Source: a phage. Taken from it: a stretch of DNA of 64,000 nucleotides. Shown one piece after another: positions 2,510 through 63,810 of the stretch. Position 1 is the stretch's first letter. Every line of letters starts with the position of its first letter. The stretch is from sequence record PX880101.1; one strand, 5' to 3'. The notes under the pieces were generated by a model. The model saw nothing but the letters and a program-made list of their open reading frames with translations. It was not told the DNA's origin and did not search any database. The position numbers and the translations under genes are program-made.

Positions 2510-2577
2510 GAGACTATGATAGCCATGTTTTATGATCTTCCTGTAGCACCACCACCTGTTGAACCCGGAGAACTAAG

Positions 2578-3003
2578 ATGATCTATGAAATGCCAAAACT
2601 GATTCGCGACGATGCCCAAAACGCCCACACCTTTATCATGGGCAAGCGCATGGATATTATTTGTCATAAAGACTTCTGGGAAGGGAGTTACTTCACAGAG
2701 TATTTTGGTAAACTGGACAATGGTCTGCTGATCCAGTTCTACACCGATGCGGAAAACAACATTCACTGGGAGTTCGAAACTGAAGATATCCATAAACTTT
2801 TCACCTTCCTCGGTATTAAGGTTGAGGCCAAGTTTGAAGAAGGTGAGTGCGACGATTGTGGATTCTATGAGGTAACAGATTTCTACCTTCCAAGTGGTAA
2901 AAATCTCTACTACGAAAGCCACTTCGGCAACTCAAATATGCCACAGTGTTGGGATGAGTTTTTGGAAATTGCAGAAGAGGAGCTGGAATACCGTGATTAT
3001 TGA
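2578..3003 (+). CDS. hypothetical acidic protein
   Basis: ORF; no motif recognised. Confidence 0.5.
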   Translation: MIYEMPKLIRDDAQNAHTFIMGKRMDIICHKDFWEGSYFTEYFGKLDNGLLIQFYTDAENNIHWEFETEDIHKLFTFLGIKVEAKFEEGECDDCGFYEVTDFYLPSGKNLYYESHFGNSNMPQCWDEFLEIAEEELEYRDY

Positions 3004-3451
3004 TACTGTAGAGGGAGATCTAATCTCCCTTTTCAAGAAAGGGGCAGGACACATGATCCACGGTTGCAACTGCTTTCACACAATGGGTGCAGGCATAGCG
3101 AAAGATATTGCCCGTGAGTTCCCTCAAGCATTGGCAGCAGACAAAGAGACTGCTTATGGTAATCTAGACAAGCTGGGTATGTTTTCTTGTTGGGAGCATT
3201 TTGCCAAGAACAAGGTTGTATATGGAATCAACCTATATACTCAGTTCTACCCAGGACCTAATGCTGAATACTTCTCAATCATGAAAGGCTTTGAGCGAGT
3301 CAACGAGGTATTCAAAGGTATGTCATTACCGTTCTACATTCCTAAAATCGGATGCGGTATTGGTGGTCTAAAGTGGGAACACGTGGAAGACGTCATTAAT
3401 CTTGCCACCACCGACATCGATGTGATCGTGGTGGAGTACAAAAAGTGTTGA
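2993..3451 (+). CDS. macro domain (ADP-ribose binding / processing) protein; proposed GTG start overlapping upstream stop
   Basis: N-terminal GDL...HGCNCFHTMGAGIAKDI resembles the macro-domain signature (GDIT...NAAN...GGGV..AI) from memory; GIGGL near C-terminus. Confidence 0.5.
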   Translation: MIIDTVEGDLISLFKKGAGHMIHGCNCFHTMGAGIAKDIAREFPQALAADKETAYGNLDKLGMFSCWEHFAKNKVVYGINLYTQFYPGPNAEYFSIMKGFERVNEVFKGMSLPFYIPKIGCGIGGLKWEHVEDVINLATTDIDVIVVEYKKC

Positions 3452-16977: not shown

Positions 16978-16994
16978 TTTCTTAACTAAACTAT

Positions 16995-17024
16995 CAGGGG
17001 CTTTAAAAGGCCCCTTTCTTTTTG
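16995..17024 (+). terminator. intrinsic terminator ending the plus-strand small-gene array
   Basis: Hairpin aggggc-tttaaaa-gcccct followed by ttctttttg. Confidence 0.6.
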
Positions 17025-17599
17025 TCTGTATTTCTCCTACCACAAACGGCCCAGCCTGGCAAGTGGAATAATTGACTAGCCATCAATCCCACACACTGTA
17101 CAAATATACATGGAAAATAACTATTGCATAATTTTTCATTGTGTGGTAGCAAGTCCATTTTTACCCGTTTTCTCTCTCAAAATTGCACGTAATGCCGCTA
17201 TTGCACAAATTTTAACCTGATGCACATCTCCAATATCTTGTCAACAACTAAAAATCTTTATAAGTCATACACTTACACAGCATCGAAAGCGTGTTCTACG
17301 CGAAAAATCGAGTATAACTATAGCCGCCAGATCTCAGAATTCACGTACGCACGCCATTCTATAGCCTGCAAAGTATTTATTCCAACCACAGAATAACGGA
17401 ATAGTCAATACCTGCATAAAATAATTATTCGTGTAAACTGCATAACATAAATCAGCTCAGGTGTCAACATTTTTCGTAAACAGTCCGAAATTATCACGAT
17501 GAGTTATCATAAACAGAGAAATCTTTAGTCGTCTAATGTTTACTGTACATTACTATACTGACTGGAATCATTAGATGACTAAGAGAAAGATAAGAAATA

Positions 17600-18020
17600 A
17601 TTAATAATGTAATTATTTTACCTGTAACAATAAGGCAACTATGCAAACGAATGGCATGGCGCGACGGAGTCGCGACATAATATAAAAGCAGTAACCATCA
17701 CCCCCGTGATAGTTTGTCTGCAATCTATTAATCAGATCATAGTTGCCTTGTATTCAGTTAATCATGACATAATAAGCAAGGCAACTATAGATCTGCTAAT
17801 AGTTGCCCTGCTTTTATATTATGTCATAGAAACACCCGAAGGGGTGACCAAAGGTCACCTGGCATGGCCAGTGAAAGATTATTAACTTGTTAATTGTTAA
17901 CTTGCTAATTGTTTTCATGCAAACGAATGTCATGGCTTATCCTATCTGTGTAAACAGTTAAGGTGTAAACTATCCAGGCGTAAACAGTCTATGCGGGAAC
18001 AATCTATACGTGAACAGTGA
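17600..18020. repeat. cluster of direct and inverted repeats
   Basis: AGGCAACTAT x4 in both orientations; catgcaaacgaatg(g/t)catggc x2; palindrome ggtgacc-aaa-ggtcacc; five copies of a G(T/C)GTAAACAG-like iteron between 17945 and 18015. Confidence 0.6.
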
Positions 18021-18629
18021 AACATGAAATAATAACAATCGTTATTGTGTCGAAAGTGTATAAGGTGTCATAGTATGTCAGACAAGTTTTTCTCCTCTTT
18101 GTCAAGTGCTGCATGAAAATTTACAAACTGGTATGGTAGCATTTTTGCGGCCCTGTTTACATTCAGTTGTGTATGTATAACCCTTGTTGTGTGGGCGTTT
18201 AGACGTCTGGACGGTTGGAAGTCTACAGGTCAATATCTAATCTATTGGCTGCTAACTATATCCCACACAAATAGTAAGAAATACAATTGTTATGTGAGTA
18301 AACGGTAACTCATGTTATCAATCCCTGTATGGATCGCCAGTGGTGCGCATAATGGGTATTATGTTAAATTGCCCGTAATGATAACTATTCTCACAATGAT
18401 AGGTATTCTCATTCACTCCCACAAGATAGGTTGCAAATGTTGTGCCACTGTGTGAACGGCCTCACCTATTAATTTGCCTCACTGCCTCGATATTTGAGAA
18501 TTGTTATAAGAATGAGAAGTATTCCCATTTCGTCCGCCTGGCAGCACTCCAGTCGCTACCGCTCATGACAGGGCAGAACTGGGTCCATTCAGATATTTCT
18601 GGCTGACTCTTCAGGTCTGTGTGGGAAAA

Positions 18630-18810
18630 GCCAACCTCTCCGGCGGGGCAGGGGTAGGTCAATTAAAAAATTTACGTGGTGTATGAAGAGCCCTTCAGGT
18701 AAGGCATGTATTATGGGATGAAACACCCTTCAGGCAATGATATTTGTGGGTGGGATATTTGCTGGAAAGCCAGATATGACGGGACTCCTGGCGGGGCAGG
18801 GGTAGTACAG
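18630..18810. repeat. direct repeats (ggcggggcaggggtag x2; cccttcagg x2)
   Basis: Two ~17 bp units about 148 bp apart, plus a second repeated unit between them. Confidence 0.55.
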
Positions 18811-19500
18811 ACAGGGGAAATATGGTGGATGTAGTTGGGTGGATTGATCAGGCAGGTAGAGTATGGAATATGTTACAAGTATGTTAAATATGGAGGATGA
18901 ATATCTGTAGGATTTGTGTGTAAAATCAAAGACTTAAGTGGTGTTGTGGTATTTTCTATAAATAATTCAAGTTTAATAGGTAATATTTGTCTCTATCCGC
19001 TTTGTGTGGTAAACAAATTCAGATGGTGTTGGTTTACAAGTGTATACATAATATACAAATTAAAGATACAAGAAACCCCCCTCCCCCTTCGGCTACCATT
19101 CACCTTTTCCTCTGACTGGTACTTAAACACTTATTCAGACTCTTCAGGTTATCACCCATATATCATATGGCAGTGACTGGTGTCCTCCGGCCCCTCTTTC
19201 GTCACCCGTCCGCTTCGCCATGCTAATGCCATAGCCAACGGTTCGGTTGTTCACCCTGTTCACTCAGGTGTATCTCCATACCCCTTCAAACCGAAGAGAA
19301 CAGAAAACCCGAATTACTCGGTAAAAGAAAAGAGAAGAACTTAATTTTATCAGGATAGGCAAGAATGTCAAGGCATGACTGCTCACTAAACAAGCAAACA
19401 GTCATGTGTGGAAGGTAAGTGATTGTGGTGGTAGGAAATTTAGTTGAAAGATGTGTTATAGGTGCGCTTCCAGCACTTTAGCCGGGCAGCTAATTGTGTG

Positions 19501-54298: not shown

Positions 54299-55060
54299 TT
54301 AAAGTTCCATAAAGTTTTCTACAGTTTCAATAAATGCTTTATCAGAGAAAGCGTCAACAGCACCGTTAAACCATACAGGGATCCCGCGATCCTCATATTG
54401 ATAAAGGTCGCTACGTGAAATGCCACTTCCATCTGCACTCTGCGAATCATACTTGTTTACAATCAGCAGTTTTGTGCCTTTACAAGTAGCAGGAAACAAT
54501 TCCCAGTTAAAATTAATAACTGTGTTAGAACAACCTACCAGGATCACCATATCATTGCTTGTGAGAGATGTCAACAGGTCATACATGTCTGTATACTTAG
54601 GAGCAACCTCACCGAAGAACACTACATTGGGCTTAACCCAGGTATACTTGCCTGTATCTACCTCCGTGTATCCGATATTTTTAATTACATCATTACCTTC
54701 AGCATCTTCGTAGGTGATTTCAGGCAAATACCCGTGGACATGTAAAATATCTTCATGTTTTACACCAGCACGCTCCAGCAAATCATCTACATTGGTAGTA
54801 AGGTTGATCACACGACCAGACCAGCGGGAATACCACTCAGCGATCCGAAGATGTGCAAGGTTAGGATCAACACTGCCCAGAGCTACACGACGTGCATTGT
54901 AAAAGTCATGCACCTTATAGTAGTTCTTGGCAAAGGTGTGGATGTTGCACACCTCATCGATGCTGAAATTCTCCCACATTGCAGTGCTACCAGATCGGAA
55001 AGTGGGAATACCAGATTCAGCGCTCAAACCAGCACCGGAGATAATAATCAGTCGTCGCAT
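54299..55060 (-). CDS. Sir2-family (sirtuin-like) NAD-dependent enzyme
   Basis: GAGLSAESGIPTFRS and NVVFFGE match sirtuin signatures; no CxxC zinc ribbon seen. Confidence 0.7.
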   Translation of the reverse strand: MRRLIIISGAGLSAESGIPTFRSGSTAMWENFSIDEVCNIHTFAKNYYKVHDFYNARRVALGSVDPNLAHLRIAEWYSRWSGRVINLTTNVDDLLERAGVKHEDILHVHGYLPEITYEDAEGNDVIKNIGYTEVDTGKYTWVKPNVVFFGEVAPKYTDMYDLLTSLTSNDMVILVGCSNTVINFNWELFPATCKGTKLLIVNKYDSQSADGSGISRSDLYQYEDRGIPVWFNGAVDAFSDKAFIETVENFMEL

Positions 55061-55068
55061 AAGTGTCC

Positions 55069-55449
55069 TCAGTAGATGTTTTGTTTAATCTCTATTCCAA
55101 ACTTCTTGAATGAGTCAGCAGCAAGCATAAATTTACGAGCTGCCGATGGATTAGAAGTATGCACGAAAATAATCACGTTGTCAATAAGTGGTGGCTTTCC
55201 GAATACAAGTTTCTCCTCTAGCGCAGAGAAGCAGTCGTACCCTTCAAGCACTTCACCTAGATCATTGTCAAAATGCCACTCAGAAACGCGCCTGTAGAGC
55301 TTTCTATTATCGTTAATAAAATCCATGAACTCAGAAGAGTTCTTCAGCCAAAGAGCATCTTGGATTCCGTAATTTGACGGATCTCTCAAGTCATCTAGCC
55401 ACACAATCAACTTCTTCATTGCATATAGTCCTCGTTGTGAAAATAGCAA
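55069..55449 (-). CDS. hypothetical protein
   Basis: ORF. Confidence 0.4.
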   Translation of the reverse strand: MLFSQRGLYAMKKLIVWLDDLRDPSNYGIQDALWLKNSSEFMDFINDNRKLYRRVSEWHFDNDLGEVLEGYDCFSALEEKLVFGKPPLIDNVIIFVHTSNPSAARKFMLAADSFKKFGIEIKQNIY

Positions 55450-56333
55450 TCAAGTATCTCACGGCGTTCCTGCTCCAGGAGGCAGTTCCACACATCTTCT
55501 GTGTAATTGCTACGAATGAAGTTTACCATGCCATAAAACTCTTCGTCAATACGTTTAAAGATATCATCATCCCAAATCTTCCAAGCTTTACCCCTCATTA
55601 CGGCCTTCCGTGCCAAATAGTATGGAGACTTGATCTTCAGCTGCAGGTCATAAGGGTAGTAAGGCTTACGGATCATATACCCTTCGCCCCTTGTTTCTGC
55701 AGCTAATTCTTTTGCATAGCTGAACGGGATTTCACGCACAGTGTGAGGACGTTTTGCACCAAGGTATTTGGCAATCCCATCTAAAGCTGCTTCTGGTAGC
55801 ATTATTCCAGAATCATTATATCTGCAACCTATCAAATATGCGCCATGGTCTTCTTGAACAATATGCGGATCTGAAGGGTGACAAATTTCAAACATGAATG
55901 TCATGTTTTCATTGCCCATAACCTTCTTGATAAGATCTAAATTACCACATTGCTCTTGGATGGTTTCCTTTGCAAGGTTACAATATGGAGAATCAAGAGA
56001 CCCGGTTGTTGAGAACAATAGGTCACCTTTATGAGATGATACCACACCAAGGAATCCGTTCTTTTTCTCTACCGCAGTCACAAGCTTATTGTCAGGCAGG
56101 TTGGTGGAGTTTTCTCCCAAGTTAAACACTTTTGTGAAGGGCCATGCCACAACATTTCCTTCATTACCTACAACAATGCCTCGGCACTCCAGTAAACGAG
56201 GGGACAAATGCCATAAATTGTTGTAAAATACTTTTCTAGCATATTTATAGATCTTTAACCCGAGATCTGGGTAATACCTACTGGTTACAAGACCTTTGTC
56301 AACTAGGTCGTCTGCATTAAAATACTTCATCAT
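55416..56333 (-). CDS. putative RNA ligase (Rnl2-like nucleotidyltransferase)
   Basis: Candidate motifs I EKKNG, III FMFEI, IV EGYMIRKP, V LKIKS; no DNA-ligase OB fold evident. Confidence 0.45.
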   Translation of the reverse strand: MMKYFNADDLVDKGLVTSRYYPDLGLKIYKYARKVFYNNLWHLSPRLLECRGIVVGNEGNVVAWPFTKVFNLGENSTNLPDNKLVTAVEKKNGFLGVVSSHKGDLLFSTTGSLDSPYCNLAKETIQEQCGNLDLIKKVMGNENMTFMFEICHPSDPHIVQEDHGAYLIGCRYNDSGIMLPEAALDGIAKYLGAKRPHTVREIPFSYAKELAAETRGEGYMIRKPYYPYDLQLKIKSPYYLARKAVMRGKAWKIWDDDIFKRIDEEFYGMVNFIRSNYTEDVWNCLLEQERREILDCYFHNEDYMQ

Positions 56334-56395
56334 ACGTTCCTCATTTGTCGTTTTGTCAGTCTATCCTGTCACACAAATAACCTAGTGTCAACACT

Positions 56396-56424
56396 TGAAA
56401 TTAACAAAACAGTTAGATATACTA
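56396..56424 (+). promoter_or_regulatory. sigma70-like promoter (TTGAAA-N17-TATACT)
   Basis: Hexamers upstream of the kinase gene. Confidence 0.45.
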
Positions 56425-56451
56425 TCGTTGAAATTAAAACGGAGGGTCACT

Positions 56452-56862
56452 ATGTCTAAAATGCTATATATCGTGCGTGGTCTACCAAGGTCTGGCAAAT
56501 CAACACTGGCAAATGCGCTATCTTTAGAGGGTCTGTATCCACATTTTGAGAACGACATGTTCTGGTATGACGATGACGGCAATTACAACTGGGATGCAAG
56601 TAAAGTAACACTCGCAGCGAAATGGTGCAAAGATAACGTAGAAGATATGATGCGTATGGGATACGACCGTATCGTGGTAAGTAATACGTTTACAAAAGAA
56701 AAACATGTGCAGGAATATGTTGACATGGCAATCAGTCATGGGTATAGTTATACCGTGATCGTGGTTGAAAACCGCCACGGTAATAAAAGCATTCATGATG
56801 TTCCAGACAAGGTTGTGGATCGTATGGAACGCCAGCTTAAAAACTGCATTAAACTTAAATGA
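56452..56862 (+). CDS. P-loop polynucleotide-kinase-like protein
   Basis: Walker A GLPRSGKST at N-terminus; start set at ATG after ggaggg RBS. Confidence 0.5.
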   Translation: MSKMLYIVRGLPRSGKSTLANALSLEGLYPHFENDMFWYDDDGNYNWDASKVTLAAKWCKDNVEDMMRMGYDRIVVSNTFTKEKHVQEYVDMAISHGYSYTVIVVENRHGNKSIHDVPDKVVDRMERQLKNCIKLK

Positions 56863-56869
56863 GGAATGT

Positions 56870-57424
56870 ATGAAATACTTTGTAACAAGCGACACACACT
56901 TTCTCCACCAGCGGGTCATGGAGTTTGATTCATGTCAAAAACACAGATCTCAGTATGATCACAATCTTGACAGTATGAATGCGGGAATCATCGCCGAATG
57001 GAACTCTGTTGTGTCACCTGCAGACACTGTGTTCCACTTGGGAGATATTGCGTGCACTAATGATAAGAATATCAACAACTTACTTCCAGATATTCTAAAT
57101 ATGTTGAACGGACATATTATTCTTGTTCGTGGCAACCATGACACAAGGACGACTGTCAGAATTATGAAAGAGTTCGGTCATGAGGTTGTAGATTATTACG
57201 AGCTTCGCCACAACAAGAATTTGATCTGTATGAGCCATTACCAATTTGCAAAGTGGAACAGAAAGCCTCACGGATCAGTCCAACTGTTCGGTCATGCTCA
57301 CGGAACCACACAACAGTTGTTTGGCAGGCAGCTTGATGTCGGTTGGGATGTGTGGGGGAGACTCTTACCATTAGAAGAGGCATACCGTATTGCAATGAGT
57401 TTTGCTATTGACAGCGGGGAGTAA
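56870..57424 (+). CDS. calcineurin-like metallophosphoesterase
   Basis: SDTHF, GDIA and GNHD motifs; start set at MKYFVTSDTHF rather than the upstream in-frame M inside the kinase gene. Confidence 0.6.
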   Translation: MKYFVTSDTHFLHQRVMEFDSCQKHRSQYDHNLDSMNAGIIAEWNSVVSPADTVFHLGDIACTNDKNINNLLPDILNMLNGHIILVRGNHDTRTTVRIMKEFGHEVVDYYELRHNKNLICMSHYQFAKWNRKPHGSVQLFGHAHGTTQQLFGRQLDVGWDVWGRLLPLEEAYRIAMSFAIDSGE

Positions 57425-57471
57425 TCCCTGCTATTTTAAAGAAAATTGCCACACAAGGAGAATCAGGAGAT

Positions 57472-57822
57472 ATGAAAGATGGGGATAAGCTGCTATATCT
57501 TAAAGTCCCCCTTGAAATACTGTCTATGTCAAAAGTTTTGAATGACACAACTGGAGAGGTTGTTGTTCTTGACTTGTATGACAAGATCGTATACTGCTAC
57601 CTGCACAACTGGTATAAGCTTGGAGGAAATTCACGCTTCACACCCAGCACAAGGAAAATTGCAGCAGATGTTGGGATAAAGAAAACAAAAGCAGCAGCGT
57701 GCGTTAAAACTTTAGAGTGTGCAGGGGTGGTTGAAATATCCACACAAGGGAGAGGTAAAAGATGCACATTTTCCAAAGTTTTGCCACCAGAAGAAGTTAT
57801 TCGGATGTCAACAACTGGTTAG
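57472..57822 (+). CDS. hypothetical protein, possible HTH DNA-binding
   Basis: C-terminal STRKIAADVGIKKTKAAACVKTLECAGVV resembles a helix-turn-helix; lies just upstream of the palindromic iteron array. Confidence 0.4.
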   Translation: MKDGDKLLYLKVPLEILSMSKVLNDTTGEVVVLDLYDKIVYCYLHNWYKLGGNSRFTPSTRKIAADVGIKKTKAAACVKTLECAGVVEISTQGRGKRCTFSKVLPPEEVIRMSTTG

Positions 57823-57896
57823 ACCAGTAAAAACTTAAATATCTGTACTATAAGGATTCGTATGTTTTATGTTCGCTCTAGAATAGAGGTCAGTAA

Positions 57897-57979
57897 CTGT
57901 CCGTGATACGGACACTACTGTCCGTCACGCGGACACATCTGCCCGTAATACGGACACTAACTGTCCGTGATACGGACAC
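57897..57979. repeat. four tandem ~19 bp units each containing inverted repeat GTCCGT-N-ACGGAC, ~21 bp period
   Basis: ctgtccgtgatacggacac at 57897, 57918 (variant), 57938 (variant), 57961. Confidence 0.7.
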
Positions 57980-58120
57980 ATAAAGAATATAACTAAAATA
58001 ACTAAATAATAAAAAAATAAAAGATCTAGTACTTATGGTACTAAAGTACATATACTTAACTTATGTAGAATATACCAGATCCTAAGTACCATGTTTTAAA
58101 TTTATTACTTACTATAGGTA

Positions 58121-58370
58121 GTGTCGGCCCTTCATTGGCACTCGCCTACGAGGGGCGAGATGCCGGGCCTCCATAGTGCACACATGCAGGTCTGTTAACA
58201 TGTGTGGGAGCGAAGCGATAGAGCAGGCCAAAGGCCGAGCACTAATGTGGACCACCGACGAAAGCTTGCCAGCGCCGTAAGGAGTCGGTTGAGAGCCTCC
58301 CGCGCGAGTTTGGATAAAGTTTATGTGTGGAAACGGACAATGAGGCCCCTAAATCGCTCCACAGCCATAT
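58121..58370 (+). other. GC-rich ORF-free island, candidate structured non-coding RNA
   Basis: Sharp GC-rich island without a long ORF between an AT-rich stretch and gene 58467; several local inverted repeats. Confidence 0.3.
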
Positions 58371-58466
58371 AAACTATACCAAGTAAGGCAATCGCACCAG
58401 TTCGATAGAAAAGCTCGTTACAAAGCGATACAGTGAGTTTTTCTATAACTTGAAGAGGAGGCAGCT

Positions 58467-59045
58467 ATGAGTCCACGCAAAGATGACCGTGAAAAGATTG
58501 CAAAACGTTATCAGAATGAAGAACAGATGGAGAAAACTTTCAAGTGGAAGCCAGGTTTCCAGCGTAATCATTCTAACGCTCGTGATCGTAAGCATCCGGA
58601 TAAGTGGCTAACACCGCCAAATGATGGCATACAGGTTGGTAATGAGAAGGAGCTGTCACCAGGAAAAGATGGCAACTACATTCGCACTAAGGAAGCAGGT
58701 CCAAAGGATGACAGCTATCTTGTAGATAAGGTTCTTGATGGTATTGATGTAGATGTTGACACTTCACGAAACCTTTTTCTTGGTTGGTATCGTACAGGGT
58801 TTTTCGACATCAAGGCTATTCGTCGTGTTTGTGATATTAAAAAGTCTGCCTATGATGATGACTCTCTACATCGCACTCTGAGACAATACTCAGAGAGATA
58901 CGGTCATCCAGTTATCACTCTTGACGATATTAACGAAGTGATGTATCATGCAGAGGTTGTTGCAGGTAGATTCGGTGATGCATATCTCGGTATTCTTTCT
59001 GCAAAAGATGAGGTAATGTTAAATAAAATTTACTATGAACGCTGA
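58467..59045 (+). CDS. hypothetical protein
   Basis: ORF with gaggagg RBS. Confidence 0.5.
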   Translation: MSPRKDDREKIAKRYQNEEQMEKTFKWKPGFQRNHSNARDRKHPDKWLTPPNDGIQVGNEKELSPGKDGNYIRTKEAGPKDDSYLVDKVLDGIDVDVDTSRNLFLGWYRTGFFDIKAIRRVCDIKKSAYDDDSLHRTLRQYSERYGHPVITLDDINEVMYHAEVVAGRFGDAYLGILSAKDEVMLNKIYYER

Positions 59046-59244
59046 GGGGCGCTTAATGAACAACCCGGTAGCAAAGAACTGTAATAAGTTCAACAAGTCT
59101 GCAATTCACACTGACAGGAAAAAGAGCTGGTCTCCTGACATTGACGAGGAGCTTGAGAGTTACTTTGAAGACCTGGTCACCAATGCAGATGAGGTTGCGA
59201 TTAAAGAATACGCAGACAGGAAGGATAAGGCCGGAATCTGTTGA
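59035..59244 (+). CDS. hypothetical small protein
   Basis: ORF; start uncertain. Confidence 0.35.
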   Translation: MNAEGRLMNNPVAKNCNKFNKSAIHTDRKKSWSPDIDEELESYFEDLVTNADEVAIKEYADRKDKAGIC

Positions 59245-59320
59245 CAAAAATAGTGTTACCTGATAAGATCTGCAATATGATGTGATGCAATTTTAACTTA
59301 CGAGGTCTACAGGTAATGCT

Positions 59321-59563
59321 ATGTTTAAGGTTAAGCTCGTTTTTCGTTCCATGAATGAGGATTATTTAGAAGATGAAGGTGAATTTCGTGCACTGGATGA
59401 TGCAATAGATTTTGCCAACGACTTAGCTTGTATGAATACAGGTTATGGGCTATGTTGTTGGGATGGTGGTGTTCAGATCGGTGATAGCAAGATCTTCTAC
59501 TTCTACCCTGAGCCTGATAACAAACAAATTAAGTATGTTTTATTTATTTGTGCTTTACAATGA
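59321..59563 (+). CDS. hypothetical protein
   Basis: ORF with TTGACA...-10 promoter-like sequence upstream. Confidence 0.45.
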   Translation: MFKVKLVFRSMNEDYLEDEGEFRALDDAIDFANDLACMNTGYGLCCWDGGVQIGDSKIFYFYPEPDNKQIKYVLFICALQ

Positions 59564-59852
59564 GGTTGTTTTCGTGTATCATGATGAATATCCAATTTAA
59601 AGATGAATTTGATGGCTTTATCTCTGGATGCTTTGAAACAGGGTTCAGAGAAGACTGAGTTCCCCTTAGAGGGCTTGATAGTGCACCACACTTAAAATGG
59701 TAGGGGCAGCCAGCACATGACGATGTGACCCCAGCCAACCTGTAACAAGGTCGAGCCGAAGCGCGGGTAATAGGCCTCTGGTAACCCACTTGTTGGGTCT
59801 TGCTGGTCCAGGACGCTGGACAAGTCGCAGGGAATACCACCCTGCGGCGAAC

Positions 59853-59881
59853 TTGACAATCAGTATTTGCTATGATAAAAT
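59853..59881 (+). promoter_or_regulatory. sigma70-like promoter (TTGACA-N17-TAAAAT)
   Basis: Hexamers upstream of ORF 59910. Confidence 0.5.
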
Positions 59882-59909
59882 CCACCTATCACGTGATAAT
59901 GGAGGAAAC

Positions 59910-60248
59910 ATGGCGGATACAACTAAAAAGCGTCGCCGTAGAGGCAGACCTCTGAAAGAGGAGTCCAACGCCATTCAGCTAGAGAAGAACATCCTTGATA
60001 TGAAGGAATCTTTTATAGCGATGGTTCCAGAAGCTCACAAAGTTTTAAGAGAGCTGATGTTGGACCCGAAAACCAAACAAAATATTCGTCAAAGCATTGC
60101 AGAGTATGTTCTTGATAAGGCAGACCGAATGCAGGAAGAATATGATGAGATGTTTGGTGAAGAGGAAGAGGTGGTAGTGGAAGAGGCTGAAAAACCAGCA
60201 CCTTTTATGCCATTTACTACAGAAATACAGCCTGTTAGCAATAGCTAA
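59910..60248 (+). CDS. small DNA-binding-like protein (RRRRGRP N-terminus, acidic C-terminus); possibly terminase small subunit
   Basis: ATG after ggagga RBS; KKRRRRGRPLKEE; the ORF-track start further upstream lacks an RBS. Confidence 0.4.
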   Translation: MADTTKKRRRRGRPLKEESNAIQLEKNILDMKESFIAMVPEAHKVLRELMLDPKTKQNIRQSIAEYVLDKADRMQEEYDEMFGEEEEVVVEEAEKPAPFMPFTTEIQPVSNS

Positions 60249-60257
60249 AATATTTTC

Positions 60258-60286
60258 TTGACAAACTTTGCTTAACAGTGTAATAT
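60258..60286 (+). promoter_or_regulatory. sigma70-like promoter (TTGACA-N17-TAATAT) for the tRNA cluster
   Basis: Consensus hexamers ~60 bp upstream of the first tRNA. Confidence 0.55.
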
Positions 60287-60344
60287 TGTAAACATGGTCT
60301 CCCACCTTTTCTGGCGGCTAAGGTGTAAAAGAAAGCCACCCAGT

Positions 60345-60419
60345 GCCCTGTTAGCTTAGTGGATAAAGCAGCGGCCTTCTAAGCCGTTGACACTGGTTCG
60401 AGTCCAGTACGGGGTGCCA
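60345..60419 (+). tRNA. tRNA-Arg (anticodon TCT)
   Basis: Hand-folded cloverleaf: acceptor GCCCTGT/ACGGGGT with G-U pairs, loop CTTCTAA, T-loop TTCGAGT, encoded CCA. Confidence 0.75.
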
Positions 60420-60423
60420 AATT

Positions 60424-60510
60424 GGGGAGTTATCCCGTAGAGGTAGCGGTGTAGACTGTAAATCTATTGTCATTGCGACTCGGGTGGTTCGACTCCACCA
60501 CTCCCCACCA
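60424..60510 (+). tRNA. tRNA-Tyr (anticodon GTA)
   Basis: Acceptor GGGGAGT/ACTCCCC, loop CTGTAAA, long variable arm, T-loop TTCGACT, CCA. Confidence 0.8.
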
Positions 60511-60624
60511 AATTTATATTTTTAGATGCATAAATAATACAGATAATGGCATTGATATTTATCGTCGTTTATACTAGTCACTAACTGCTCGAAAATCAGT
60601 GTCATTATCAGTATAATTTATAAA

Positions 60625-60715
60625 GGAGGGTAGGGAGCAATGGTGCTCAAGCGGTCTTGAAAACCGTCCCGTTGGGTATGACTCGATGATGGTTCGATTC
60701 CATTACTCTCCGCCA
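60625..60715 (+). tRNA. tRNA-Ser (anticodon TGA)
   Basis: Acceptor GGAGGGT/ACTCTCC, loop CTTGAAA, long variable arm, T-loop TTCGATT, CCA. Confidence 0.7.
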
Positions 60716-60813
60716 CATTGTTGACCTTGTAATTAAGCGAAAGCCGGAAGCAGAACCGGATTATCAAATGTTACAGTCGTCATCGCCGACTAGCAACATG
60801 GTCAACATACTGA

Positions 60814-60912
60814 GCTAGGTAAGCCCTTTGGCAAGGGCGAGGATTTTTAATCCTGAAAATAGACGAGGTAGTAGTTGAATACATAGGTGGTTCGATTCCA
60901 TCACCTAGCACC
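60814..60912 (+). tRNA. aberrant tRNA-like element (possible Lys-TTT loop) with ~29 nt insertion before the T-arm
   Basis: Perfect acceptor GCTAGGT/ACCTAGC, D-arm GCCC-TTTGGCAA-GGGC, T-loop GGTTCGATTCC, but oversized variable region and imperfect anticodon stem; no encoded CCA. Confidence 0.35.
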
Positions 60913-61580: not shown

Positions 61581-61979
61581 ATGATTTCAGGTTTAACATG
61601 GCTGAGTAGGTATAGAGGGATCATAAAAGGTTTAGTTTTTGCAGCGGCTATAGGTACAGCTTATCTTGGGGCCGTGTATTGGTTTAACTCTAAGCTTAAT
61701 GAAGCCTACCAAGAAGGTGTGTTAGCAACAGAGTTGAAGTGGGAACGGATCCTTGATCAGCAACAAAAGCAGGCCGACAAAATTAAAATGGGCCACGCAG
61801 AGGAGGTTAAAAACCTTGAAAAATCCCTTTCTGATCTACAGGATAAATTAAATATAGCTGAGAGGGCAGGTAGAGAAAAGCAGATTATCTACCTCCAATC
61901 ACCTGAAGGTAAGAAGTCAACACTTCCTGATCAGCTTATAGATATTTATAATGAGAGTATCAATCAGGAGGATCGATGA
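61581..61979 (+). CDS. putative i-spanin (Rz-like)
   Basis: N-terminal TM segment GLVFAAAIGTAYLGAVYWF followed by charged coiled-coil; next gene is a Pro-rich lipoprotein. Confidence 0.5.
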   Translation: MISGLTWLSRYRGIIKGLVFAAAIGTAYLGAVYWFNSKLNEAYQEGVLATELKWERILDQQQKQADKIKMGHAEEVKNLEKSLSDLQDKLNIAERAGREKQIIYLQSPEGKKSTLPDQLIDIYNESINQEDR

Positions 61980-62263
61980 GAGTTGCCACACTGTTTATTG
62001 CGTGCTTGTTATTATGTGGGTGTGCAACCAGCGTTGAGAGAGAATACAAGATTGACCCTCCGGATGTAGGAAGGTTGATTGTTAAACCCCCAGAAGGTGC
62101 CATGAAACCACCTGCTAAAGCTATGCCTTTGAAGAAAGGTGCGCCAGATGCAGTGAATTCTGGCATTATGAGGGATAATAATCTGTCTTGTAGCAATGAT
62201 AGAGCTAAATTGATCATTTTGCAAGACTATATTAGAACACTGTTTCCAAAGGAGAGAGGTTAA
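61976..62263 (+). CDS. putative o-spanin (Rz1-like outer-membrane lipoprotein)
   Basis: Signal peptide with lipobox-like LLCGC, proline-rich mature part; start overlaps upstream stop. Confidence 0.5.
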   Translation: MRVATLFIACLLLCGCATSVEREYKIDPPDVGRLIVKPPEGAMKPPAKAMPLKKGAPDAVNSGIMRDNNLSCSNDRAKLIILQDYIRTLFPKERG

Positions 62264-63810
62264 TGTCTAAGATTTACGGACCGTGTTCTGAAAAGCAGAA
62301 GATGATCCTCGAAAACGATGCAGATATCTTGGTAATCGGCGGTGCCGCAGGGTCTGGCAAGTCGTTCCTCTTGCAGTTGATGCCACTTAAAATTATTGAT
62401 GACCCCCACAGCTCTGTGGTTATGTTCCGAAGAACAACCCCACAGTTGGAAGGTGAGGGTGGACTATGGCCTAAAGCAGTAGCTATTTATAGTGATCTGC
62501 CTGAAAACATTAAGCCAAAGTTCAGAGAGAAGGATCATAAGTTCATTTTTCCACGGTTTGATCCGAACACTGGTAAGTGGGATAGAAGCAAAAAGGGAGC
62601 TGTTGTAAAATACTGCCATATGGAGTATGTGCAAGATAAGCTTAACCATCAGGGGCTTGAGTACACCATGGTTTGCTTCGATGAGGGCACGCAGTTCGAA
62701 TGGGAGCAGATAGACTACCTGATGTCTCGTCTGCGATCTCAGTCAAAGTATCCATCAAGAATGGTTATCAGCTGTAACCCCGATTCAGAACACATGCTTG
62801 CCAAACTGGTTAGATGGTGGTTGGACGATGAAGGGTATCCAGATCCGGAGAAATGCGGTAAGAAAAGATATTTTATCCGACGCGACGGGGAATTTATCTG
62901 GGGAGATTCTAAAGAAGAGTTGATAGAGAAATACACCACGGTTAACGGACTTGGTGTAGAGATCAAGCCAAGACCGTTGTCATTCTCGTTCATAGGCGCA
63001 ACAATATTCGATAATCCTGTCTGTTTGAGAGACAACCCAGAATACCTTGCTTTCCTCGAAGGTCTACCAGAGCTGGAAAAAGCTCAGCTTCTCCATGGTA
63101 ACTGGTTTGCAAAGCCTGAGGGTGCAAACTATTTTCAAAGATCTTTCCTTCGTGATGCCGATAGAGTACCTCTTGGGTCAGTATCTTGCAGGGCATGGGA
63201 TAAGGCAGGAACCGAGAGAACTTCCGGTAATAAATTTCCTGACTTTACTGCCAGTATTAAGGTAAGTAAAGATAGCGACGGCTTTTATTACCTGTCCGGT
63301 GATTATTGTCCTGAGAACGTGGATGACGGGAGGTATTCCACAGGTCTGGAAGGCAAGTTCTGTAAAAAGGCTGGTGAACGAGATGTGATCATCAGGAAAC
63401 AGGCGCAGTTCGATGGTGATGATTGCATAATCGTCTTCTCTGTAGACCCAGGGCAGGCAGGTAAGAGTGAGTTCTTAACCTCCTCCAGATCCTTGCTTGC
63501 CGAAGGGTTCAGGGTTGAAGAAGACCCAATGCCTTCCAACAAGTCTAAACTGACAAGGTTCTCACCTTTTGCCAATCTTGCCCAACAAGGAATGGTGAGG
63601 ATTGTAAAATCCAGTTTCCATCCTGATACTCTGGAAGCATTTCTGACTGAACTTGAAAAATTCAACGGGGAAAGATCAACATTTAACAGAAAAGACGACT
63701 GGGCCGACTGCGTAGCTTCTGCGATTAATTTCCTGGAGAAAGAGGAGGTAGCACTTCCTTGTGTGATTCCATCAATCTCATCACCTTCTATGTTCAAGCG
63801 TTTTATCTAA
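62263..63810 (+). CDS. terminase large subunit
   Basis: Walker A ILVIGGAAGSGKS, Walker B MVCFDEGTQ, C-terminal nuclease-like acidic residues, 515 aa. Confidence 0.8.
   Translation: MSKIYGPCSEKQKMILENDADILVIGGAAGSGKSFLLQLMPLKIIDDPHSSVVMFRRTTPQLEGEGGLWPKAVAIYSDLPENIKPKFREKDHKFIFPRFDPNTGKWDRSKKGAVVKYCHMEYVQDKLNHQGLEYTMVCFDEGTQFEWEQIDYLMSRLRSQSKYPSRMVISCNPDSEHMLAKLVRWWLDDEGYPDPEKCGKKRYFIRRDGEFIWGDSKEELIEKYTTVNGLGVEIKPRPLSFSFIGATIFDNPVCLRDNPEYLAFLEGLPELEKAQLLHGNWFAKPEGANYFQRSFLRDADRVPLGSVSCRAWDKAGTERTSGNKFPDFTASIKVSKDSDGFYYLSGDYCPENVDDGRYSTGLEGKFCKKAGERDVIIRKQAQFDGDDCIIVFSVDPGQAGKSEFLTSSRSLLAEGFRVEEDPMPSNKSKLTRFSPFANLAQQGMVRIVKSSFHPDTLEAFLTELEKFNGERSTFNRKDDWADCVASAINFLEKEEVALPCVIPSISSPSMFKRFI

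Follow-up and report, generated by a model that had tools for sequence, protein, structure and literature searches.

The leaders of enterobacterial ribosomal RNA (rrn) operons contain a motif named boxC, UCUGUGUGGG, the function of which in Escherichia coli is still called unclear, and a boxA, which is necessary and sufficient for the formation of the rrn antitermination complex (PMC10250234; boxA sequences were taken from PMC2724277). In this study we describe a GC-rich intergenic element in a stretch of phage DNA of 64,000 nt (PX880101.1; this whole stretch is hereafter the window, and coordinates are counted from its first letter), which carries boxC-like motifs among hairpins and is shared by rV5-like (Vequintavirus) phages and a family of small E. 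coli plasmids. Other described systems with which such a locus can be compared are replication origins based on iterons, the leader-derived immunity RNAs P4 CI and P1/P7 C4, which are found in satellites and plasmid prophages, and the mosaic palindromic BIME/REP elements of E. coli. The phages concerned are widely isolated and have therapeutic and biocontrol use against E. coli O157 and other strains.

With the rrn leader (boxB-boxA-boxC) and the nut sites of lambda the element shares an exact boxC, UCUGUGUGGG, within matches of up to a 13-mer, placed in the sense orientation in untranslated sequence. As in the rrn leader-trailer helix, its boxC-like strand is predicted to pair with a CACA-rich complement through helices containing G.U pairs, and boxA-like cores are sometimes adjacent. 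It differs from the rrn leader in having no consistent boxA, no 18–19-nt spacing between boxA and boxC and no rRNA, and in that its boxC-like motifs are repeated two to six times with unrelated hairpin cassettes between them.

A constrained non-coding element

The element is NEVERTHELESS functional, non-coding and under purifying selection. When the window is compared with the divergent contig L004, the core of the element (58123–58308) is 92.5% identical, as against 70.5% at the fourfold-degenerate sites of the downstream gene gp073, and thus matches the level of codon positions 1 and 2 (89–95%); the segment from 58309 to the start of gp073 is 80.9% identical. Conservation sets in sharply at 58121–58123 (GTGTCGGCCC), even in L004/L018, where the upstream repeats and the gene for a DNA-binding protein have been swapped for a different set, and the tight core is followed by a more weakly conserved leader that extends up to the start of gp073 (58467). 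The window belongs to Escherichia phage A6-1 (PQ510733), an rV5-like Vequintavirus, with which its region 57800–58500 shows 100% identity; 119 rV5-like records match this region over its full length (blastn). As a side observation, 18 records named 'Campylobacter phage' (MG0656xx, UNVERIFIED) are near-identical rV5-like coliphage genomes and are probably mislabelled, and the same probably applies to CP057073.1, a 137.6-kb 'plasmid' which is an rV5-like phage genome.

A preliminary description of this DNA, made from its letters alone, had pointed to a GC-rich island at 58121–58370 with no credible open reading frame (ORF), and both points are borne out. The GC content of 0.568 is the maximum among all 250-nt segments of the 64 kb (mean 0.428, standard deviation 0.035), a level reached by 0.02% of them, and immediately 5' of the island it falls to 19.9% (57980–58115). 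The limits then proposed were slightly off, since the core ends at about 58308 and the leader runs to 58466. The longest frames of the island are 47 aa, on the minus strand, and 56 aa, with a GTG start (58202–58372); the latter is annotated in rV5 and some relatives as gp074/ORF78 and fails coding tests. Among 16 relatives its substitutions are spread 15/18/17 over codon positions 1/2/3, with no position bias, the second codon is a stop in phage naam, L004 has a premature stop, and the frame found no match in PHROG or Pfam.

Plasmid copies of the element

Searches with blastn against E. coli genomes and PLSDB located the core, at 83–86% identity, on circular, non-mobilizable E. coli plasmids of 13.2–13.7 kb, and the plasmids with the element considered here are L019 (NZ_CP020521.1), L020, L021, L022, L048, L068, L230 and L231. 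In a plasmid record of 39.6 kb the core matches at three places, consistent with a trimer, and two more contigs carrying the element, of 13.9 and 15.5 kb, were obtained from the metagenome scan. Distant homologues were sought by pattern scans of IMG/VR, by one metagenome and one GTDB scan with GAAAGCTTGCCAGCGCCG, and by blastn against phages, plasmids and E. coli genomes, and in those searches the only carriers were Vequintavirus phages and the 13-kb plasmid family; about 190 further loci from the homologue scans were discarded as chance matches in GC-rich genomes.

Among the products of these plasmids are a major capsid protein of the HK97 type, a tape-measure protein, baseplate/tail-fibre-like and Neck1-type proteins and an HTH_36 protein of about 300 aa, whereas no terminase, portal or integrase is found among the annotations. 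The longest matches of the tape-measure protein are to Vequintavirus tape-measure proteins, at 25–26% identity, and no plasmid ORF has a protein homologue in the window. Members of this family, of 13.2–13.9 kb, have the look of satellites or mini-phages carried as plasmids, and their helpers may be rV5-like phages; no description of the family was found in the searchable literature.

The plasmid copies consist of hairpin cassettes in an array, their loops being UAC, CAU, AUAC, UUCG and GAA, and the subsets and orders of cassettes differ by plasmid (D only; A,B,D; C,D; B,C,D; A,B,C,D; B',A',F). Two alternative 5' domains occur, the phage-type one being found also in L019. Homologous cassettes differ by pair-preserving changes, e.g., UUUAGCU/AGCUAAA versus UUAAGCU/AGCUUAA, and one hairpin has been swapped for another at the same place in the core of L230 and in hairpin 1 of cassette A; in CP134895 the whole core hairpin is exchanged for UCCGGAU...AUCCGGA while its flanks are unchanged. 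A plasmid array of 388 nt folds with z = -5.5, none of 100 shuffles being as stable. Signals of RNA type are C(UUCG)G tetraloops and the GNRA loop described below.

The copy in L019 (minus strand, ~13100–12690 and the preceding ~500 nt) is a mosaic, in which a unit of repeats and AT-rich sequence with a truncated type-2 5' domain comes first and is followed by a second unit, the repeats of which differ and which has an AT tract together with a 5' domain of the phage type. From this tandem arrangement the module appears to move as a block by recombination.

Conserved base pairing

Comparison of the phage and plasmid copies indicates that base pairing is selected for, as hairpins have been kept by compensatory change in at least three helices: two such pairs are found in the 5' hairpin, three in the core helix and one in hairpin 2 of cassette A, with none broken there. 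The long hairpin of the 5' domain (58126–58169, plus strand, as are all features of the element given below), predicted by RNAalifold, is built of GGCCC/GGGCC, GGCA/UGCC and CUCGCC/GGCGAG, and relative to plasmid L019 it shows two compensatory double changes from G-C to U-A, one per stem (from phage to plasmid, GGCA/UGCC to GUCA/UGAC and CUCGCC/GGCGAG to CUCUCC/GGAGAG).

The 3' core (58249–58298) contains a helix ACCGAC/GUCGGU (58254–58259 with 58284–58289) closing an invariant loop, GAAAGCUUGCCAGCGCCGUAAGGA, and a flank GGAC/GYCU (58249–58252 with 58295–58298), and inside the loop there is a GNRA-type hairpin, CC-G(U/G)AA-GG (58275–58282). In the plasmids the helix reads GCUGCC/GGCAGC around the same 24-nt loop, GAAAGCUUGCCAGCGCCG(U/G)AAGGA, in which the U/G variation falls on the N position of the CC-GNAA-GG tetraloop (GUAA or GGAA). 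The six pairs are 100% paired in 11 distinct sequences, three of them having changed on both sides, and the covariation of the helix is 0.302, versus 0.153 when shuffled (0 of 500) and at most 0.079 with the partners slid; these changes are essentially one split between phage and plasmids and thus correspond to few independent events. Searched with a covariance model of the core, R1, each element gives exactly one hit, and there is no other in 226 kb. A likeness of the plasmid core (CCGGAAGGAGGCAGC) to the 4.5S RNA of the signal recognition particle was rejected because the bases concerned form a different, covarying helix.

The middle hairpin (58179–58208; CACACAUG/CAUGUGUG) contains UCUGUUAACA in its loop and overlaps the boxC-like UGUGUGGG (58201–58208). 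In this region some pairs have changed on one side only, from C to U or from A to G, and so persist as G.U on the plus strand, and most relatives have at ~58179, the 5' edge of the hairpin, an insertion of 18–21 nt which is itself a hairpin, UGCAC...GUGCA with an ACAG/CUGU stem. The motif CUCCCGCGC (58297–58305) is kept in all phage and plasmid copies, and both the minimum-free-energy and the RNAalifold folds place it in a closing helix with GUGUGGGAG (58201–58209); this helix is predicted only, because its pairs are invariant or changed on one side (G.U in L004 and LL12, A.C in naam). RNAalifold applied to 14 phage sequences gave 0 compensatory pairs, since the sequences are too similar, and its 3' structure conflicts with the helix that covaries against the plasmids.

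The less conserved 3' leader (58309–58466), which runs to gp073, holds a second, degenerate boxC-like motif, UAUGUGUGGA (58322–58331), a motif CCCCUAAAU common to phage and plasmids, a near-invariant 12-bp hairpin (58405–58446) that includes the boxA-like GCUCGUUA (58413–58420) and, at its end, the ribosome-binding site (RBS) GAGGAGG 5' of gp073. A pseudoknot between the invariant loop and AAGGCAA (58385–58391) was unsupported, consisting of only 5 bp and being broken in four relatives.

That the island might be a structured non-coding RNA had been suggested in the preliminary description, together with an Rfam scan and a comparison with shuffled controls as ways of checking it. At gathering thresholds, cmscan of the whole window found only six tRNAs; nothing relevant was found in Rfam for the phage island and a plasmid array (gathering threshold and E ≤ 10) or for five plasmids (gathering threshold), the only stray matches being an AT-rich rli43 pseudo-hit and miRNA-type palindromes on the iterons. 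The island itself folds at z = -1.6 on either strand, which is not significant. Judged by the missing Rfam match and this z value alone the idea would fall, and it is rescued by the purifying selection, by the compensatory changes relative to the plasmid copies and by the z of -5.5 of the longer plasmid array.

Genomic context

The gene upstream of the element, gp075 of rV5 (57472–57822, plus strand), encodes a winged-helix DNA-binding protein of 116 aa which belongs to PHROG 12838, annotated 'replication initiation protein' (E 2.5e-80), and which scores slightly below the cut-offs for Pfam DUF6945 and HTH_36. The protein is 99% conserved in 119 phages; its best match in the PDB is an unnamed protein of 120 aa, matches to CodY-type helix-turn-helix domains are weak, and apart from its PHROG label it also resembles transcription regulators. 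Proteins of the HTH_36 class are also encoded by L018 (143 aa) and by the plasmids (~300 aa), and those of the plasmids in addition have weak matches to PHROG 428 and 391, 'replication initiation O-like'.

Downstream of gp075 there are four 17-bp palindromic repeats, TGTCCGTGATACGGACA (57898–57978, with a spacing of 21–22 bp), which could be iterons or operators; allowing for at most one mismatch, all four lie at this place, and elsewhere in the window there are only two matches with two mismatches (0.09 expected). They are followed by the AT-rich tract (57980–58115), a candidate DNA-unwinding element and/or promoter, which ends in a -10-like TACTAT (58110–58115) and in which no consensus sigma-70 promoter was scored. 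Directly 5' of the element an ATAG(G/A)TA-type motif is found in the phage, in L019 and in the other plasmids. A T7-class promoter at TACTATAGGTAG (58110–58121) was considered and dropped because its critical positions vary in relatives, and T7-primase-like sites (GTGTC/GGGTC/TGGTC) after the junction motif were judged to be chance occurrences.

The order of palindromic repeats, AT-rich tract and element is fixed in every lineage, with a gene for a winged-helix protein of the HTH_36 class nearby. The repeats themselves differ, L004/L018 and each plasmid carrying their own palindromic set, and they co-vary with the protein between lineages; L019 has two such units in tandem. This layout is the anatomy of a lambda-type origin and equally that of an operator-controlled promoter.

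The first gene downstream of the element is gp073 (58467–59045, plus strand; 192 aa; PHROG 12226, no Pfam match), after which come small genes, each with a sigma-70-like promoter, six tRNA genes, the terminase and the structural genes. Between 57408 and 58921 there is no sigma-70-like promoter with two or fewer mismatches, and no terminator-like site was found in 57400–58900; with no such site between them, the element would belong to the gp073 mRNA. In L017 a homologue of gp073 with 50% identity has no element upstream, and by synteny the whole module is absent from Salmonella phage SEW_6S and Klebsiella phage Iguana, which represent sister genera; it is therefore an accessory and probably exchanged module.

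The genes directly upstream of the module (54299–57424), 3 kb from the tRNA cluster, encode an Rnl1-like RNA ligase, an AAA_33 kinase-like NTPase, a metallophosphoesterase and a Sir2-type deacetylase, and are typical of RNA repair.

boxC-like motifs and the structured-leader interpretation

The motif at the cassette junctions, (UC)UGUGUGUGGG, is the boxC sequence of rrn leaders. The plasmids share exact 10–13-mers with the leader of E. coli rrsH (longest CAATCTGTGTGGG; 13-mer CAAUCUGUGUGGG), and the phage has the exact 8-mer UGUGUGGG once, in addition to its degenerate copy at 58322–58331. In the arrays of the phage and of all eight plasmids the orientation of the junction motif is that of the downstream genes, so that, as in rrn leaders and nut sites, a boxC sequence stands in the sense strand of an untranslated leader, and it can pair with CCCACA or CUCCCGCGC strands in a manner comparable to the pairing of boxC with the 16S trailer.

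The plasmids have a second leader of interest, in which UCUGUGUGGG lies ~200 nt past a consensus promoter (TTGACA-17-TATAAT) and ahead of the capsid operon; its complement, CCACACAG, precedes it to give an 8-bp helix, in five plasmids and with no repeats nearby. In L019 this leader occupies 2560–3070, extending ~480 nt after the perfect consensus promoter, and equivalents are present in L021, L022, L048 and L230; a perfect DnaA box (TTATCCACA) overlaps CCACACAG, 20 nt 5' of UCUGUGUGGG, and is kept in the five plasmids.

Our best reading, with a probability that we put at roughly 0.35, is that the element is a transcribed, cis-acting structured leader acting as an elongation or processing signal of the rrn-leader or nut kind. 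A rightward transcript of the plus strand would start in the AT-rich/operator region, or read through from the gp075 promoter at 57408, and continue into gp073. The nascent RNA would fold into defined helices in which boxC-like strands are paired with CCCACA or CCCGCGC strands, and host elongation or processing factors (Nus-type, RNase III) may be recruited; the polymerase would then pass over an untranslated stretch of ~350 nt to reach the downstream genes, and the RNA ends left behind would be processed and capped by hairpins. The same module stands at the head of the main operon in the 13-kb phage-like plasmid family. RNA is favoured as the active form because boxC-like motifs are found again in a leader that is plainly transcribed from a sigma-70 promoter and has no repeats nearby, because UUCG and GNRA loops are present and because the orientation of the motif is constant within arrays.

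Transcription with its strand and ends, the plus-strand RNA as the active form and an effect on elongation or processing are all inferred, and several observations weigh against such a leader. A proper boxA, needed for the recruitment of Nus factors, is not consistently present. The boxA-like cores next to boxC-like motifs, which in themselves speak for a leader, are CGCUCUUU-GUGUGGG in L019 and L231, CUCUUUAGGCAAUCUGUGUGGG in the other plasmids and GCUCGUUA in the phage; in plasmids other than L019 and L231 the core, (A/C)CUCUUUA, is buried in a perfect 10-bp stem. In the phage the candidates for boxA (UGCUCUUUA or CGCUCUUA) are UCUGUUAACA, which agrees at only 7 of 12 positions (58190–58201), and GCUCGUUA at 58413, which has one mismatch to the 8-mer, lies downstream of boxC and is partly in a stem; GCTCTTTA is not enriched in the 64-kb window. 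The phage island alone reaches only z = -1.6 on either strand, the plasmid array is as stable on one strand as on the other (z -5.5 and -5.6), and the 3-nt loops of many hairpins (GAA, UAC, AAA) would be more typical of hairpins in DNA. Among the pairs proposed by RNAalifold, one-sided changes give about as many A.C as G.U combinations and thus no clear strand signal. The plasmid array is separated from its operon by sigma-70-like promoters, and in the phage several are found 3' of gp073, so the downstream genes do not depend solely on the leader.

The distribution of the octamer TGTGTGGG, the core of the rrn boxC, is a further difficulty. It occurs 13 times in the window (5485, 10534, 15785, 17088, 18188, 18262, 18618, 19821, 23636, 31297, 53839, 57349 and 58201), compared with an expectation of 1.7 and with none of 100 shuffles reaching 13, and 9–11 times in each plasmid of 13.5 kb (L019–L230), where about 0.4 are expected, on both strands. 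Being over-represented outside the element, on both strands and in both phage and plasmids, it could be a site acting at the level of DNA. Finally, an origin would equally show this constant association with a Rep-like winged-helix protein, iterons and an AT tract.

As a separate observation, several phage early leaders carry the complement, CCCACACA(ACAA), just past a sigma-70-like promoter or 5' hairpin and ~20–25 nt 5' of the start codon.

Alternative explanations

The strongest rival of the leader interpretation, unlikely but to be taken seriously, is an element associated with a replication origin, in which the four repeats and the AT tract would form a lambda-ori-like origin served by the HTH_36 protein. 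The hairpins could then act in single-stranded DNA after unwinding, as a loading signal for primase or the primosome (in plasmid R1 a G4-type ssi 'G site' sits downstream of oriR), or a transcript could activate the origin or prime synthesis through an R-loop or primer, as does RNA II of ColE1. Like ori-lambda and the theta plasmids, the phage has four palindromes about two helical turns apart, an AT tract and a neighbouring gene for a winged-helix initiator-like protein, with the GC-rich hairpin segment on the far side of the AT tract as in iteron origins with ssi signals. Repeat arrays analogous to the one beside the AT-rich tract of the phage are present in all plasmids, and the order of the module is kept in the phage, in L004/L018 with their different repeats and in all eight plasmids, including the tandem double unit of L019. 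The ~300-aa proteins are the only candidates for a replication initiator on those plasmids, and gp075 is a member of a PHROG family annotated for replication initiation. Triloop hairpins and a GCGAAGC mini-hairpin (58210–58216) suit DNA hairpins, the two strands fold equally well, and the 5' domain of most plasmids is rich in G runs on the non-template strand, which would favour R-loops.

Against an origin, the boxC-identical motifs, which are found also in the sigma-70-driven capsid leader where there are no repeats, point to use at the RNA level, and the variation from one to four cassettes is odd for a precise priming site. The hairpin segment, at 190–420 nt, modular and with rrn boxC-like motifs, differs from what is known of iteron origins, as does the phage protein, which at 116 aa is a DNA-binding domain alone; there is no exact DnaA box in 57000–59000. 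The cumulative GC-skew minimum of the window lies at ~56 kb, ~2 kb away, which would suit an origin, but it is not specific evidence for one because it coincides with the point of divergent transcription.

Clearly less probable is a trans-acting non-coding RNA, by which the array, or pieces of it cut at the UGUGUGGG junctions, would act away from the site of synthesis. It could serve in immunity or copy control in the style of P4 CI or P1 C4, as a decoy or sponge for a factor of the host or helper, or as an antisense RNA to 5' untranslated regions containing CCCACACA, and the shared core would mediate cross-talk between helper and satellite. In favour of this, the core is nearly identical in a genus of virulent phages and in capsid-encoding plasmids that otherwise share no detectable sequence with the window, the layout is that of beads on a string with a short repeated motif, and in several phage early leaders CCCACACA(ACAA) stands at the 5' end, besides occurring in non-coding DNA of the plasmids; since the promoters of the plasmid operon itself lie downstream of the array, the array could be transcribed separately. 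In common with the P4 CI and P1/P7 C4 RNAs, it would be a structured RNA from the leader of a main operon, carried by a phage-like element outside the chromosome, and it has short repeated motifs with complements nearby. The element, however, is much larger than these and modular, with no evident terminators, and in the phage no terminator-like end is visible; no C4-type model of Rfam was matched at E ≤ 10 by the phage island or the plasmid array, or at the gathering threshold by five plasmids, and neither a CI-type nor any other small-RNA family was found. No complementarity to targets beyond 8–12 nt was found, and the phage copy, with UGUGUGGG once and the degenerate UAUGUGUGGA, would make a poor sponge.

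A related and similarly doubtful proposal is that the element is a portable, modular RNA 'handle' common to an rV5-like helper and plasmid-borne, capsid-encoding satellites, its hairpin cassettes and boxC-like junctions forming a signal in cis or in trans by which the satellite would couple its replication, or the expression of its structural genes, to the helper, or would interfere with the helper. Possible routes are the titration of a factor that reads the helper's copy and pairing with the early leaders that bear CCCACACA.

Improbable by comparison with the foregoing is an array bound by protein as double-stranded DNA, in which TGTGTGGG and the inverted repeats would be recognized by a phage, plasmid or host factor, forming a nucleoid, gyrase or partition-type complex as at BIME/REP or the par locus of pSC101, and the paired changes would reflect co-evolution of symmetric half-sites. 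The enrichment of TGTGTGGG on both strands of window and plasmids, the equal folding of the strands and a BIME-like mosaic of palindromic units, with short conserved linkers, in untranslated DNA and in variable number, are what such an array would predict. Dimer sites would not be expected to have arms of 5–7 bp on either side of a 24-nt spacer that is invariant, loops of the UUCG and GNRA types, nested cassettes of several hairpins or changes that preserve G.U pairs. Unlike BIME/REP, the element is present in a single copy per genome at a fixed position, under strong purifying selection that includes the loops, and it has no similarity to chromosomal repeats of E. coli (blastn, 0 chromosomal places).

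A small protein gene, for which the annotation of the 56-aa frame in rV5 and some relatives speaks, is effectively excluded, since its GTG start has no RBS and the cassette changes in the plasmids destroy the frame, in addition to the even substitutions, the stops and the missing family match reported above.

Still further from acceptance is a minimal RNase P-like ribozyme for the phage tRNA cluster, which lies 2 kb downstream: the preliminary description had compared gccgggcctccatagtgcacacatgcagg, confirmed at 58163–58191, with a conserved segment of bacterial RNase P RNA, and GCCGGGCCUCCAUAG does locally resemble the P4/J4-5 segment of M1 RNA, but over 15 nt only, every defining feature tested being lacking, and the resemblance is put down to chance because no RNase P model (types A and B, archaeal and minimal type T) matched at E ≤ 10 in a 701-nt search (57800–58500, cmscan), the motif varies, GGGCC pairs locally and its supposed 3' partner is uncompensated. 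Thus 'CCATAG' is among the most variable spots of the element in an alignment of 13 relatives (CCTTGG, CCGTAG, CCCGGG, CTTTGG) and reads CCTGTG in plasmid L019; GGGCC (58165–58169) pairs with GGCCC (58126–58130) in the consensus fold, closing a local hairpin and leaving no long-range P4; and the sole candidate for the 3' strand of P4, GAGGCCC (58343–58349), is GAAGGCC, GAATGCC or GAAGGAC in relatives while the 5' strand is unchanged. The plasmids with the element, moreover, have no tRNA genes.

Other regions of the window

A second GC-rich (up to 0.536) and ORF-poor patch lies at 59600–59850, 5' of a sigma-70-like promoter (TTGACA-17-TAAAAT, 59853) and of the gene at 59910, and L018 has an unannotated gap at the equivalent place. 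At 16980–19450, a convergent strand-switch region, about 2.5 kb contain no ORF of at least 60 aa; the repeats there are GTAAACAG, four to five times at ~17950–18010, AAGGCAACTAT, inverted, at 17630–17800, and CGGCGGGGCAGGGGTAG, twice, at ~18640 and 18790. Pieces resembling plasmid cassettes are also found, at 19462–19500 (cassette A') and 18609–18625 (the end of cassette C), and 16980–19450 may thus represent another region of regulation or replication origin, or several clustered genes for non-coding RNAs.

The large terminase (61974–63810; PQ510733 15925–17759) is annotated as two adjacent coding sequences in A6-1. In rV5 (58030–60872) an HNH homing endonuclease interrupts the terL match (tblastn), which falls into three pieces, and a polymorphism of terL involving an intron, an intein or a homing endonuclease is suggested by this.

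Significance

In rV5-like phages the most GC-rich and most constrained intergenic segment has been left unannotated or mis-annotated as a 56-aa protein. In the literature searched we found no account of the element, of a Vequintavirus non-coding RNA, of an rV5 transcriptome or of rV5-associated satellites, and the modularity of the cassettes, combined with their sharing between phage and plasmids, fits no described system. Because the small plasmids have it too, the element may be a signal for regulation or replication that is portable. Should the element be a leader, it would represent the re-use by phages and plasmids of boxC from rRNA operons and would offer a simple, non-essential system for studying boxC; should it be part of an origin, the start of replication would be defined for a whole phage genus. 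An RNA handle, if true, would be an RNA-level interface between helper and satellite of a kind not described before. Either way, its presence on 13-kb plasmids with capsid and tape-measure genes hints at a possible plasmid-type satellite of virulent myoviruses, and the element provides a specific sequence with which the interaction of helper and satellite may be probed.

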